64,000 bases of DNA, from NCBI RefSeq assembly GCF_044324875.1, contig NZ_CP172185.1, one strand, 5' to 3'. Below are positions 54,001-63,000 of the stretch, in pieces. Every line of letters begins with the position of its first letter. Position 1 is the first letter of the stretch. The stretch comes from Escherichia coli (GTDB taxonomy: Bacteria > Pseudomonadota > Gammaproteobacteria > Enterobacterales > Enterobacteriaceae). The position numbers were made by a program.

Positions 54001-57000
54001 CAATCAGGCAATGCAGTTGGCGAACGATTCATCAAACGATGGGTAATGACTCCAACTTATTGATAGTGTTTTATGTTCAGATAATGCCCGATGACTTTGT
54101 CATGCAGCTCCACCGATTTTGAGAACGACAGCGACTTCCGTCCCAGCCGTGCCAGGTGCTGCCTCAGATTCAGGTTATGCCGCTCAATTCGCTGCGTATA
54201 TCGCTTGCTGATTACGTGCAGCTTTCCCTTCAGGCGGGATTCATACAGTGGCCAGCCATCCGTCATCCATATCACCACGTCAAAGGGTGACAGCAGGCTC
54301 ATAAGACGCCCCAGCGTCGCCATAGTGCGTTCACCGAATACGTGCGCAACAACCGTCTTCCGGAGCCTGTCATACGCGTAAAACAGCCAGCGCTGGCGCG
54401 ATTTAGCCCCGACATAGCCCCACTGTTCGTCCATTTCCGCGCAGACGATGACGTCACTGCCCGGCTGTATGCGCGAGGTTACCGACTGCGGCCTGAGTTT
54501 TTTAAGTGACGTAAAATCGTGTTGAGGCCAACGCCCATAATGCGGGCAGTTGCCCGGCATCCAACGCCATTCATGGCCATATCAATGATTTTCTGGTGCG
54601 TACCGGGTTGAGAAGCGGTGTAAGTGAACTGCAGTTGCCATGTTTTACGGCAGTGAGAGCAGAGATAGCGCTGATGTCCGGCGGTGCTTTTGCCGTTACG
54701 CACCACCCCGTCAGTAGCTGAACAGGAGGGACAGCTGATAGAAACAGAAGCCACTGGAGCACCTCAAAAACACCATCATACACTAAATCAGTAAGTTGGC
54801 AGCATCACCCAAAAATTCGAGAATGACGATGATCTAATAGGTACGTTATTTTTAGCGTTGCCAGATAACTTACAGTTTAATTTTGTTAAAAGGATGGAGA
54901 AAAAATCCCCTGCCTACTTTTGCTGTCGGGATATGCAGATAATTCACTCTGACGCTGCTTTACAACGGTTATTGACACGTTTCAACGATCCTGAGGGGTG
55001 GAGTAATTTGGCGAAAAATCAGTATCTGAGCACGTCGATGAAACAAAAAATTTGGCAACGTGCTTTATCGCATCGGAAAAATAATCCGAAAGCAGATTCT
55101 GCAGCATATGAAACCAGCGCTGATATGATTTTGTCTGAGCTGATTAGCCACGGTGAAGTTGATGACCAGATGCTATTAAATGCCACCTCTCTGATACGTT
55201 CGGAAGGCTGGGACTTTTTAGAGAGTGCATTAGTTAGTTGGGATAATTTACCCGCTGTTGTCCTCAAGGAATTACAGCAAAATATGCCACGCAATGATAT
55301 TTGGGCGAAGTTTTTTCTGAGGCAGGAAAACAGCTCTCGTGCGCAGGTTAACGAAGCGTTACGTGTTTATTATGCACTTGACCCCGATGCATTAGCACAA
55401 CTGGATAAACTGGCAAAACAACCGGATCGTATATGGTGGAGTACACTGGCGAAAAGCAATCTCACATTTTTCAAGTTCGGCGCACTTAACAACCACCACA
55501 CACCGCCTGCAGTACTGGCGGCAGAAATTGATCCCGAGTGGTGGATTGTGGCGATGAATAATCCCCGTTTTCCAGTTGATGTATTAAAGGCGAGGCTGAA
55601 ACGTGATCCTTTGCTGGCGTTAGAGCTTGTTAACCCTGAACTGGATTTAGTTCGGCAGCTGGCGCTTAACGGTAAGACGCGCGCAATACGGGAACAAGCG
55701 ATGAGAAAACTTGATGAGTTGCATTGAATAACAGCGTTATATTTTTAACTATTTGATTAATTGGGGATAATCATTCCTGACAGTGAGCCCCAGTACCTTG
55801 ATATATTCTGATTTTTTAATGAAGCGGCGTGTTGCGATATCTCTGCCAGGGCAATTGATGCACCATAGCGCAAACCGTATTATCAAGGATTGATAATGAC
55901 GCTCTACCAGATAAAACCGCTCTTTCAGTCGCTGTTAAGGCCGACGATGTTTTGGCTTCATAAGCTGCAAGTGTCTGCAAATCAGATCACACTTGCCGCT
56001 TTGGCACTTTCTCTTCTCACCGGTTTGTTGTTGGCGTTGGTGCCATATCCTGGCATGTTTCTGCTATTGCCCATCGTGCTTTTTGTCCGTATGGCACTCA
56101 ATGCGCTGGATGGCATGATGGCGCGTGAGTGCAATCAGCAAACACGTCTTGGGGCGATTTTGAATGAAACAGGCGATGTTATTTCCGATATTGCGCTTTA
56201 TTTACCGTTTTTATTTTTACCGGAAAGTAACGCATCACTCGTAATACTCATGTTATTTTGCACCATATTGACCGAGTTTTGCGGTTTACTCGCGCAGACG
56301 ATTAACGGTATTCGTAGTTATGTCGGTCCATTTGGCAAAAGCGATCGCGCGTTAATATTTGGTCTGTGGGGGCTGGCCATTGCCATTTATCCACAATGGA
56401 TGCAATGGAATAATTTTTTATGGAGCATTGCTTCAATTCTGCTTCTCTGGACTGCGATTAATCGTTGTCGGAGTGTGCTTTTTATGAGTGCTGAAAGATA
56501 ATGCTGGAAAAATCTCTGGCAACACTTTTCGCGTTGTTAATTTTAGCAACGCTGATAAACCGTTTTCTGGTATGGCGGTTACCGGAGAGAAAAGGGGGGG
56601 AGGTTACATTACGTATTCGTACCTGGTGGGGCATCGTCATTTGTTTTTCACTGGTGATTTCAGGTCCACGCTGGATGACGTTGACGTTTTTTGCGCTGAT
56701 AAGTTTTCTGGCATTGAAAGAATATTGTACGCTTATATCTGTACATTTTCCGCGTTGGTTATATTGGGGTATTCCTCTTAACTATTTGCTTATCGGTTTT
56801 AATTGTTTTGAGCTGTTTCTGTTATTTATACCTTTGGCTGGGTTTCTGATATTAGCCACCTGGCGAGTTTTTGTGGGTGACCCCTCCGGTTGTCTGCATA
56901 CCGTGAGCGCCATTTTTTGGGGCTGGATAATGACCGTTTTCGCCTTGAGTCATGCCGCCTGGTTGTTAATGTTGCCAACCATAAATATCCAGGGCGAGGC

Positions 57001-60000: not shown

Positions 60001-63000
60001 CCGTTTACTGGCTGACATTGCCATGGCGCATCGGGATGTGGCTGTCTATGCGTTGGTTTTGCCTTCGCCTGGAGCCGGTGAGCAAAATTACGGCTGGTGT
60101 TTATTTAGGGGCGTTTCCACAACATATTCCGGCACAGAATGCGGTTCTGGACGTCACCTTTGAAATCCCTCGCGGACGAGCGACAAAAGATCGACTCTAT
60201 TTTTGTGTACCGATGTTGGATCTGGTGGTTCCGGAAGAGGGGGAGCTCCGACAGACCGTGGCGGTGTTGGAAACATTACGCGAAGAGCAAGGCAGCGTTC
60301 TGGTCCATTGCGCGTTGGGATTATCGCGCAGTGCGCTGGTAGTGGCGGCATGGCTGTTATGTTACGGACACTGTAAAACCGTTGATGAAGCGATTAGCTT
60401 TATTCGCGTCAGGCGCTCGCAAATTGTGCTTAAGGAAGAGCACAAAGCGATGCTGAAATTATGGGAAAACAGGTAAGCGGATTGAGATGTGGACTGAATA
60501 TCTACAGTCCACATCAAGACCGTGTCCGGTTATGCAGCAACAATACTGTCGATGGCTGCTTTCGCGTCAGACTGCGCTTTCGCTGCCATTTCCGGACCGT
60601 ATGCGATCCCTTCGGCGAAGACAAATTTCACATCGGTAATCCCGATAAAGCCGAGGAACGTGGACAGATACGGCGTCACCAGGTCCGTTGGTCCATCTTT
60701 GTGGATCCCACCGCGGCTGGTAATAACGATGGCTTTTTTACCCGTTACCAGACCTTCCGGACCGTTCTCGGTATAGCGGAAAGTAACGCCTGCACGTGCA
60801 ACCAGGTCAAAATAGTTTTTCAACTGAGTCGAGATGTTGAAGTTATACATCGGTGCCGCAATAACGATAACGTCGTGGGATTTCAGCTCGGCAATCAGCT
60901 CATCGGAAAGCGCCAGCGCTTCCTGCTGACGCGGAGTCAGCGGCGCATCGCTCGGACGCAGTGCACCAACCAGTTCGCCATCCAGTACCGGAATCGGATT
61001 TGCAGCCAGGTCACGCACGGTGATTTCATCAGCGGAGTGCTTTTCGCGCCATTGTTCAACAAAATAATCGGACAACTGATTAGACTGAGAGTACCCTGCC
61101 AGGATGCTGGATTTAAGAACTAATACCTTACTCATGGTGTTTCCTTATAGATGTTTGAATGGGCGATGCCCCGTTGCTTGTTGACACTTTATTCACAATC
61201 CTGCCACAGAGATAGCGCAATAAATCGAAGCCTATGTTCGAATTTATTGAACAACGCATAGAAAGCCGCGATGTGGTACTCTATATCTATCATTTAAAAG
61301 AAAATTAATCAGGCAGCCTACTGCCCACTAACGTTATGACAGAACAACAAAAATTGACCTTTACGGCCTTGCAGCAGCGGCTGGATTCGCTGATGCTGCG
61401 CGACAGACAGCGTTTTTCTCGCCGTCTGCACGGCGTGAAGAAGGTTAAAAATCCTGATGCACAACAGGCCATTTTCCAGGAGATGGCGAAAGAGATTGAC
61501 CATGCGGCAGGGAAAGTCCTGCTGCGTGAAGCGGCACGACCGGAAATCACTTATCCGGACAATTTGCCGGTTAGTCAGAAAAAGCAGGACATTCTCGAAG
61601 CAATTCGTGATCACCAGGTAGTGATCGTCGCCGGGGAAACGGGTTCCGGTAAAACGACTCAGCTACCGAAAATCTGTATGGAGCTGGGCCGCGGGATTAA
61701 AGGGCTGATCGGCCATACCCAGCCGCGTCGTCTGGCGGCGCGAACGGTGGCGAACCGTATTGCGGAAGAGCTGAAAACGGAGCCGGGCGGTTGCATCGGT
61801 TACAAAGTGCGTTTCAGCGATCACGTAAGTGATAACACGATGGTCAAGCTGATGACCGACGGTATCCTGCTGGCGGAGATCCAGCAAGACCGCCTGCTGA
61901 TGCAGTACGACACCATCATTATTGACGAAGCGCACGAACGCAGCCTGAATATCGATTTTCTGCTCGGCTATTTGAAAGAGTTGCTGCCGCGGCGTCCTGA
62001 CCTAAAAATCATTATCACTTCCGCGACTATCGACCCGGAACGCTTTTCGCGCCACTTTAATAATGCGCCGATTATCGAAGTCTCCGGTCGGACCTATCCG
62101 GTGGAAGTGCGCTATCGCCCGATTGTTGAAGAAGCCGATGATACCGAGCGCGATCAGTTGCAGGCGATTTTTGACGCTGTAGACGAACTGAGCCAGGAAA
62201 GCCCTGGCGACATTCTGATCTTTATGAGTGGTGAGCGGGAAATTCGCGATACCGCCGATGCGCTGAACAAGCTGAACTTACGCCATACCGAAATCTTGCC
62301 GCTTTATGCGCGGCTTTCGAACAGCGAACAGAACCGCGTGTTCCAGTCGCACAGTGGACGGCGCATTGTGCTGGCGACCAACGTCGCGGAAACCTCGCTG
62401 ACCGTACCGGGGATTAAATACGTTATCGACCCAGGTACGGCGCGTATCAGCCGCTACAGCTATCGCACTAAAGTGCAGCGTTTGCCGATTGAGCCGATTT
62501 CTCAGGCGTCTGCCAACCAGCGTAAAGGCCGCTGTGGTCGTGTGTCAGAAGGGATCTGTATTCGTCTCTATTCGGAAGATGATTTCCTGTCGCGCCCGGA
62601 GTTTACCGATCCGGAGATTCTGCGTACCAACCTGGCCTCGGTTATTTTACAGATGACCGCGTTGGGGCTGGGTGATATCGCCGCGTTCCCATTTGTCGAA
62701 GCGCCGGATAAACGTAATATCCAGGATGGCGTGCGTCTGCTCGAAGAGCTGGGCGCGATCACCACTGATGAACAGGCCAGCGCCTATAAACTGACGCCGC
62801 TCGGTCGCCAGCTTTCGCAATTGCCTGTCGATCCTCGTCTGGCGCGTATGGTGCTGGAAGCGCAAAAACATGGCTGCGTGCGTGAGGCGATGATTATCAC
62901 GTCCGCGCTCTCCATCCAGGATCCGCGCGAACGACCGATGGACAAACAGCAGGCATCGGACGAAAAACATCGTCGCTTCCACGACAAAGAATCCGACTTC

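Follow-up and report, generated by a model that had tools for sequence, protein, structure and literature searches.

What does the ynbABCD operon of Escherichia coli make, and to what end? It is among the few obvious lipid-enzyme clusters of this species left without an assigned product, and four intact, closely spaced open reading frames (ORFs) in the order ynbA-ynbB-ynbC-ynbD occupy positions 55896–60476 (plus strand) of the DNA that we analyzed, a 64,000-nucleotide (nt) stretch of contig NZ_CP172185.1 (assembly GCF_044324875.1) that we call the window. The locus and its annotations were already known: RefSeq lists the identical set of four genes in E. coli, and megablast against complete E. 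coli genomes recovered the same locus, with a top identity of only 98.2–98.3%. A sequence-only reading of the window had likened the operon to phosphatidylglycerol (PG) synthesis, that is, formation of cytidine diphosphate diacylglycerol (CDP-DAG), alcohol transfer and dephosphorylation. That logic holds, and the same reading has been published for the Pseudomonas aeruginosa homolog, the cluster Arc1 (PMC8926400). With moderate confidence, we propose that ynbABCD is a reduced Arc1-type cluster encoding an auxiliary CDP-DAG-dependent lipid pathway, normally poorly expressed and running beside the housekeeping CdsA/PgsA/Pgp route, whose role, by homology, would be to remodel envelope lipids against phospholipase damage.

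The first line of evidence is the distribution of the cluster. Among 1.84 billion representative proteins, 406 YnbC-like clusters matched at E<1e-30, with full-length fusions down to ~32% identity. A scan of one genome per species, using a profile from an 11-sequence YnbC alignment (a 32-sequence alignment was too diverse), gave 80 loci in Enterobacterales, Pseudomonas, Variovorax, Cupriavidus, Burkholderia, Bradyrhizobium and others. By tblastn, adjacent homologs of YnbA, YnbC and YnbD are present in at least 78 of these loci, a YnbB homolog in ~66 and an acyltransferase (AT) in ~64. Clustering of this extent across Gamma-, Beta- and Alphaproteobacteria goes far beyond chance and bears out the coupling of the four genes that the sequence-only reading had claimed. 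Natural YnbA–YnbC fusion proteins (P0123, P0150 and P0239), together with the co-occurrence of YnbA, YnbC and YnbD, further support functional coupling. Two additional genes recur in the cluster, one encoding a PlsC/LPLAT-type AT of ~210 amino acids (aa) with HX4D and PEGTR motifs and the other a fast-evolving small membrane protein (sTM) of 130–150 aa without an NCBIfam family. At the same azoR/hrpA site, Citrobacter has the order A-B-AT-C-D-sTM; in Pseudomonas, the order is A-C-D-sTM-AT-B; and Morganellaceae loci hold A-C-D alone, without ynbB. E. coli, the window included, has A-B-C-D, where neither AT nor sTM has left a trace. The invariant core is thus YnbA–YnbC–YnbD, and, judged by these comparisons, the E. 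coli operon is best described as a cut-down version of a cluster that comprises six genes and is conserved across Proteobacteria. Among the 80 loci, a search for further recurrent neighbors, such as inositol-phosphate synthase or sugar-phosphate genes, returned only lineage-specific flanks and spurious antisense ORFs.

The second line of evidence connects this cluster to a phenotype. Ting et al. (2022) named PA2541–PA2536 of P. aeruginosa arc1A–F, an antagonism resistance cluster that is expressed at a very low basal level, is induced by Gac/Rsm and is required for survival under attack by the B. thailandensis type VI secretion system (T6SS); they noted that four Arc1 genes are homologous to PG-synthesis enzymes (PMC8926400). 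A second study found that arc1A helps cells to resist two lipase effectors, TseL and Tle1 (bioRxiv 10.1101/2024.10.26.620397). We located Arc1 through the published deletion primers: an 18-mer of the PA2541 primer matches L102, a P. aeruginosa-type contig of our set, and the remaining PA2541 and PA2536 primers match with 0–2 mismatches and in the expected geometry. Between the primers, tblastn finds YnbA (48% identity), YnbC (56%), YnbD (41%), sTM, AT and YnbB (38%). The core enzymes of the operon are, therefore, homologous to PA2541, PA2540, PA2539 and PA2536, and the window holds four of the six Arc1 genes (A, C, D and B homologs), as a reduced variant. In the literature that we searched, no paper ties ynb to Arc1, neither Arc1 study mentions ynb, and no paper treats ynbABCD as a unit or assigns a function to YnbA, YnbC or YnbD. 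We offer the ynb–Arc1 identification, the history of cluster reduction and the atypical catalytic features described below as leads, not demonstrations.

Pfam profile searches agree with the protein families that had been read from the sequence for all four products, and closer comparison shows where each departs from its familiar relatives. YnbA matches PF01066 (CDP-OH_P_transf; E 1.1e-9) over residues 27–172. Set against the family signature DxxDGxxAR-x8-G-x3-D-x3-D, its motif reads N69xxD72G..A76R77..G86xxxN90xxxD94xxxD98, with asparagine at the signature positions D1 (N69) and D3 (N90) and aspartate retained at D2 (D72) and D4 (D94), in a register set by alignment to the mycobacterial phosphatidylinositol phosphate synthase (PIPS) 6h53, the top PDB match. 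Because all 80 homologs, and also the YnbA–YnbC fusions, carry both N69 and N90, YnbA represents a conserved variant subfamily and not decay. It scores 76.1 bits (3e-21) against the archaetidylinositol phosphate (AIP) synthase model NF040950 (cut-off 180), 52.9 bits (3.5e-14) against the phosphatidylinositol phosphate (PIP) synthase model NF045883 (cut-off 170), 26.2 bits (1e-5) against the pgsA model TIGR00560 (cut-off 109.1) and 20.2 bits against PRK10832 (PgsA; cut-off 304). By score, YnbA is nearer to AIP and PIP synthases than to PgsA, yet below all of the curated cut-offs. Separately, ynbA is unusually diverged from the K-12 lineage (55896–56501 compared with L082 1501–2106), with 91.7% nt identity, a synonymous divergence (dS) of 0.22 and 19 of 201 aa different; dS is 0.09–0.11 for ynbB, ynbC, ynbD and azoR. 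Either old allelic lineages or recombination at the operon's 5′ end may explain this difference.

YnbB is the one member of the set with published biochemistry. It matches PF01148 (CTP_transf_1; E 2.8e-69) and carries the SAIKRD...KD...PGHGGLLDRIDS signature, with K257, R258, D259, K263, D264, G271–G274, D277, R278 and D280 at least 95% conserved in homologs. Its score against the CdsA equivalog PRK11624 is 111.7 bits (cut-off 385), and the match is confined to the C-terminal half. In vitro, YnbB makes CDP-DAG from phosphatidate; it supports synthesis of MPIase, an N-acetylglucosamine-diphospho-diacylglycerol (GlcNAc-PP-DAG) glycolipid whose level is raised or restored by YnbB overproduction; and it is unable to complement a cdsA deletion or sustain bulk phospholipid synthesis (PMC6362211, PMC7018664). 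Expression of ynbB is induced in the cold together with MPIase (PMC6362211, PMC7018664, PMC11413397). The earlier statement that no product had been assigned to the operon must, therefore, be withdrawn for YnbB, and it stands for YnbA, YnbC and YnbD in the literature searched. One E. coli record of 889 aa (P0001) joins PF01148 and the YnbC domains in a single chain, an apparent YnbB–YnbC read-through or fusion.

YnbC combines Hydrolase_4 (PF12146; 6e-68) and Methyltransf_20 (PF12147; 2.7e-150). Its family profile matches the M. tuberculosis and human monoglyceride lipases in the PDB at 1e-37 to 1e-33, and the triad S115/D230/H260, at least 95% conserved, is that of a lipase- or lysophospholipase-type hydrolase. 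In the second domain, the S-adenosylmethionine (SAM) motif D413-A-A-G-x-G is likewise at least 95% conserved and the acidic D439 is conserved, as in class I methyltransferases. The AlphaFold2 (AF2) model of this domain (predicted local distance difference test (pLDDT) score, 93.8) has small-molecule O/C-methyltransferases as its closest folds, with Foldseek matches to SAM methyltransferases at E 1e-12 to 1e-10. These matches comprise just generic small-molecule enzymes and an uncharacterized Bordetella protein (3ocj) and, therefore, give no substrate clue; a literature search on PF12147/Methyltransf_20 returned no results. A ynbC transposon mutant is on record as building up polyphosphate, in one strain background only. 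We also came across a distant hydrolase–Methyltransf_20 fusion (L084/L085, 8001–9779) that is 33% identical to YnbC, at a locus where ynbA and ynbD are absent. Its neighbors (3649–7830) are a small ORF, a ketoacyl synthase, a MaoC dehydratase, a short-chain reductase and a Metal_hydrol protein, hinting that YnbC-type fusions may act on acyl chains or carboxylates. The contigs that carry another distant homolog, P0165, were too short for gene context.

YnbD had been read as a membrane-anchored CX5R phosphatase. The phosphatase part stands: Pfam finds DSPc (6e-26) with HCALGLSRS, and the domain has the HCX5R(S/T) P-loop, the general-acid aspartate and the fold of a dual-specificity phosphatase (DSP). 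The anchor, by contrast, proved to be a second catalytic domain, of PAP2 type. The AF2 model (pLDDT 93.3) shows eight transmembrane (TM) helices followed by the DSP domain, and an invariant His/His/Asp triad, H142 (S140-L-H142), H182 and D186 (H182-x3-D186), corresponds to PAP2 motifs C2 and C3, with C3 aligned to human PLPP1 in the family profile. PAP2_3 matches YnbD itself weakly (3e-4); at E≤0.001, it matches 19 of 31 family members, and PAP2 matches 17 of 31. Two features of monoester phosphatases, the C1 motif and the C3 arginine, are not in place: the position of the C3 arginine is valine in 71 of 73 homologs and threonine in the other two, and the C1 motif Kx6RP is replaced by a C1-like [R/K]109-x4-R114-P115. 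By fold, the membrane domain has nearer relatives in the PAP2-type head-group transferases SMSr (sphingomyelin synthase-related protein) and Aur1 than in PgpB and LpxE. Loops rich in lysine and arginine (1–7, 84–91, 151–163 and 204–215) alternate with K/R-poor loops that bear the triad, which would put the PAP2-type site at the periplasmic face and the DSP site in the cytoplasm. We took this topology from the AF2 helices and charge distribution because a crude hydropathy script under-called TM segments.

Together, these features suggest a reaction sequence. YnbB would convert phosphatidate to CDP-DAG, as others have shown that it can, and YnbA would move the phosphatidyl group to a phosphorylated and ubiquitous acceptor; we suppose an acceptor of this kind because YnbA is PIPS/AIPS-like, has conserved basic residues and has no linked precursor-synthesis gene. 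The cytoplasmic CX5R domain of YnbD could then take off the acceptor phosphate, as PTPMT1 does on phosphatidylglycerophosphate (PGP). YnbC may deacylate through its monoacylglycerol-lipase-like domain and methylate some group with SAM, and the SMS/Aur1-like domain of YnbD could, after flipping, transfer or cleave the phosphodiester head group on the periplasmic side, with release of diacylglycerol (DAG). Given its homology with Arc1, the pathway would serve in envelope lipid remodeling or repair and so protect against phospholipase damage. What we report here is the homology, clustering, fusions, conserved catalytic residues and folds, set beside the YnbB activity and the Arc1 phenotype established by others; from these we infer the acceptor, how the steps follow one another, on which side each YnbD domain works and what the phenotype in E. 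coli would be. A link to the envelope in E. coli is supported by published regulation: BglJ–RcsB activates the ynbA promoter of K-12, which has a specific activator site, and ynbB is cold induced.

A more specific version of this proposal is possible, although we hold it only tentatively: the YnbA–YnbC–YnbD core would make or transfer an undescribed methylated or otherwise modified phospho-head group on a CDP-DAG carrier, this product would be the source of Arc1-type protection against phospholipase toxins, and YnbB would natively work with YnbA, its connection with MPIase being a side activity. The conserved oddities of the family (the two asparagines of YnbA, a head-group-transferase-like domain joined to a cytoplasmic phosphatase and the lipase–methyltransferase fusion) point away from textbook PG chemistry.

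At the level of the DNA, the coordinates and junctions of the ORFs (Table 1) confirm four contiguous genes with overlapping or abutting ends: the ynbA stop and ynbB start have one base in common (GATAATG), the ynbB–ynbC spacer is 15 nt with AGGA inside, and ynbC and ynbD overlap by 11 nt, provided that the ynbD GTG start is used. Upstream of ynbA, a sigma-70-like TTGATG-17-TATTAT lies at 55855–55883, a kind of match no commoner here than in shuffled sequence; our promoter and terminator scan as a whole gave no more sites than shuffled sequence. The 53 nt that separate the convergent ynbD and azoR include an inverted repeat, probably a bidirectional terminator, that we read from the sequence; a terminator scan that depends on a T-tract did not pick it up. 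Farther upstream, ydbD (a DUF2773 bactofilin; 52748–55727) is cut into two ORFs by an IS1 of 768 bp at about 54041–54808 (minus strand) that carries insA and insB, with readable ends GGTAATGACTCC... and ...AGCATCACC; in E. coli 118UI, ydbD is uninterrupted at 2307 bp. The insertion is in keeping with an Escherichia lineage that is Shigella-like or rich in IS elements.

Table 1. Coordinates of the ynb locus and of related features (window positions unless a record is named)
Feature	Position	Strand	Description or basis
ydbD–ynbA intergenic region with ynbA promoter	55728–55895	+	A-T-rich, 168 nt
ynbA	55896–56501	+	201 aa, CDP-alcohol phosphatidyltransferase-family membrane protein
ynbB	56501–57397	+	298 aa, CdsA paralog (phosphatidate cytidylyltransferase family)
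ynbC	57413–59170	+	585 aa, hydrolase + Methyltransf_20 fusion
YnbC monoacylglycerol-lipase-like hydrolase domain	57506–58210	+	Pfam
YnbC Methyltransf_20 class I SAM methyltransferase domain	58235–59158	+	Pfam
ynbD	59160–60476	+	438 aa from RefSeq-type GTG start; two-domain membrane enzyme
YnbD N-terminal 8-TM PAP2-superfamily domain	59160–59969	+	Profile, invariant residues, AF2
YnbD C-terminal CX5R dual-specificity phosphatase domain	60099–60470	+	DSPc
Perfect 11-bp inverted repeat GATGTGGACTG / CAGTCCACATC, 8-nt loop	60486–60515	.	Read from sequence
sTM (PA2538 position)	L003 13031–13432; L044 13145–13600; L102 9245–9664		
Records showing the two loss types	L111 (E. coli 1424KP), L083 (E. 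coli MB50)		

Within E. coli, selection on the operon is evident but relaxed. Between the window and a K-12-lineage genome, the ratio of nonsynonymous to synonymous substitution rates (dN/dS) is 0.19–0.23 for all four genes, and the catalytic residues, which are invariant or nearly so among homologs, are all present in the window. At least 80% of the operon is covered in 4283 of 5426 complete genomes (~79%), counts that refer to sequence coverage and not to reading-frame integrity. Losses take two forms: a clean ydbD–ynbABCD deletion that joins pdxI to azoR and leaves 44 bp of ynbD, and an internal ynbA′–′ynbC deletion. Given a dN/dS of ~0.2 and these losses, purifying selection on the operon persists in relaxed form, and part of the species can do without it.

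Several observations weigh against our proposal. E. coli is without the AT and the sTM that most clusters have, and no homolog of either was found anywhere in the 64-kb window. Escherichia YnbB (window and K-12) has R85, C102 and Y291 where 65–66 of 68 homologs of other genera have D, W and H, a change that may be linked to loss of the neighboring AT or to the reported MPIase activity. The dN/dS of azoR is 0.04, approximately five times below that of the ynb genes; ~21% of complete genomes do not retain 80% of the operon, and with 4768 of 5426 showing any match, ~12% have none. The distant YnbC homolog beside ketoacyl synthase, dehydratase and reductase genes means that the fusion enzyme is not confined to the ynb pathway. 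No lipid product has been reported so far for ynb or for Arc1, and the sole direct E. coli biochemistry connects YnbB with MPIase and not with a phospholipid. Finally, we can only guess at the YnbA acceptor and at what the two YnbC domains and the PAP2-like domain act on.

Four other explanations deserve comparison with the proposed Arc1-type pathway; each fits some of the data, and each is weakened by points against it. An operon dedicated to MPIase, in which YnbB makes CDP-DAG and GlcNAc-PP-DAG and the others carry out later or auxiliary steps (YnbA, for example, as a GlcNAc-1-phosphate:CDP-DAG transferase), strikes us as unlikely. It draws on the rise of MPIase upon YnbB overproduction, on the ability of YnbB to restore MPIase, and not phospholipid, under CdsA depletion, and on the joint cold induction (PMC6362211, PMC7018664, PMC11413397); asparagine for aspartate in the YnbA metal site could also suit an anionic phosphate nucleophile. 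Yet deletion of ynbB in K-12 leaves growth and the MPIase level unaffected, and the authors of the MPIase work rate the contribution of YnbB as marginal or auxiliary. MPIase is reportedly essential, whereas the whole operon is missing from the ~12% of genomes noted above. Moreover, the invariant core is YnbA–YnbC–YnbD, Morganellaceae loci dispense with ynbB, the MPIase papers searched do not mention ynbA, no paper found gives YnbA, YnbC or YnbD a function, and MPIase synthesis has no known methyl group, lipase step or DSP step.

We consider it similarly improbable that the operon is a plain back-up PG route (phosphatidate to CDP-DAG to PGP to PG), induced under stress to refill the membrane and making no novel product. 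In its favor, four Arc1 genes are homologous to enzymes that make PG (PMC8926400), and a glycerol-3-phosphate acceptor would fit the absence of any linked special-precursor gene in the 80 loci. However, YnbA scores far better on the AIP synthase model than on the pgsA model, and two of its signature aspartates are invariantly asparagine; the membrane domain of YnbD is nearer to head-group transferases than to PgpB and is without the C3 arginine; and the invariant hydrolase–methyltransferase, at times fused to YnbA, has no role in PG synthesis. Furthermore, E. coli cannot do without pgsA or the pgpABC set, which means that under laboratory conditions the chromosomal ynb operon does not stand in for them.

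It is less likely still that the operon is a silenced remnant in Escherichia, heading for loss and now without function. Two of six ancestral genes are gone, many genomes have lost the operon in whole or in part, the G+C content of ynbA and ynbB is only 44–45%, the locus dN/dS is well above that of azoR, YnbB is altered at three otherwise invariant positions, and deleting ynbB from K-12 does not affect growth. Against this stand the four ORFs intact in the window, the ~79% of genomes that keep most of the operon sequence, a dN/dS still indicative of purifying selection, the retention of all catalytic residues, the specific activator site in the K-12 promoter and the cold response of ynbB.

An inositol-type lipid pathway, with YnbA as PIP synthase and YnbD as PIP phosphatase as in mycobacteria and Bacteroides, is very improbable: the best matches of YnbA are indeed AIP synthase, PIP synthase and 6h53, and a phosphatase is encoded next to it, but its scores fall far under the curated cut-offs (76 versus 180; 53 versus 170), no precursor gene, inositol-phosphate synthase included, turns up repeatedly beside the cluster in the 80 loci, and, to our knowledge, E. 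coli neither makes inositol-1-phosphate de novo nor contains phosphatidylinositol. On the grounds given, the inositol-lipid and plain-PG readings were both down-weighted.

If ynb and Arc1 are the same pathway, as we favor, the consequences run in both directions. Arc1 has a clear defense phenotype in P. aeruginosa, but its chemistry is not known; the genetic and lipidomic toolkit of E. coli could then be applied to it, with K-12 as a tractable model. Conversely, the phenotype to seek in E. coli would be resistance to T6SS or host phospholipases, tied to Rcs/BglJ or to cold induction. The link also raises the question of whether the connection between YnbB and MPIase is the native role of the operon.

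Set beside known systems, the operon resembles several in part. MPIase biosynthesis by CdsA and YnbB, studied in the Nishiyama laboratory, shares YnbB itself and so provides an experimentally documented activity for one gene, but this work covers ynbB alone and not ynbA, ynbC, ynbD or the conserved cluster. SMSr and Aur1 (inositol phosphorylceramide synthase), the nearest folds to the YnbD membrane domain, have only 11–14% sequence identity with it; unlike them, YnbD retains a C1-like [R/K]x4RP motif and includes a cytoplasmic DSP domain as a fusion, and ceramide is absent from E. coli. PIP and AIP synthases (for example, PDB 6h53) are the closest relatives of YnbA by sequence, with an alignment that spans the entire 6-TM core and the DGxxAR...G...D...D region in common; YnbA differs in its sub-cut-off scores and its asparagines at D1 and D3, and ynb-type clusters differ in having no linked inositol-phosphate synthase gene. 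The housekeeping PG pathway (CdsA, PgsA and PgpA/B/C, with mitochondrial PTPMT1) follows the succession that the ynb domains suggest, from phosphatidate to CDP-DAG, transfer to a phosphorylated alcohol and dephosphorylation, and DSP-type and PAP2-type PGP phosphatases both have precedent there. In contrast, YnbA is not a PgsA equivalog (26 versus 109 bits) and has asparagine at D1 and D3, YnbB is not a CdsA equivalog (112 versus 385 bits) and cannot replace CdsA, and the hydrolase–methyltransferase has no counterpart.

The closest comparison is with Arc1. The two differ in that E. coli ynb is without the PlsC-like AT and the small membrane protein, in gene order (A-B-C-D versus A-C-D-sTM-AT-B), in regulation, which for ynb is by BglJ–RcsB and cold and not by Gac/Rsm, and in that the antagonism phenotype is known for P. 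aeruginosa only. They are alike in uniting homologs of YnbA, YnbC, YnbD and YnbB in one cluster, with the same domain fusions and variant motifs across the family, and in combining low basal expression with activation by an envelope- or danger-related regulator.

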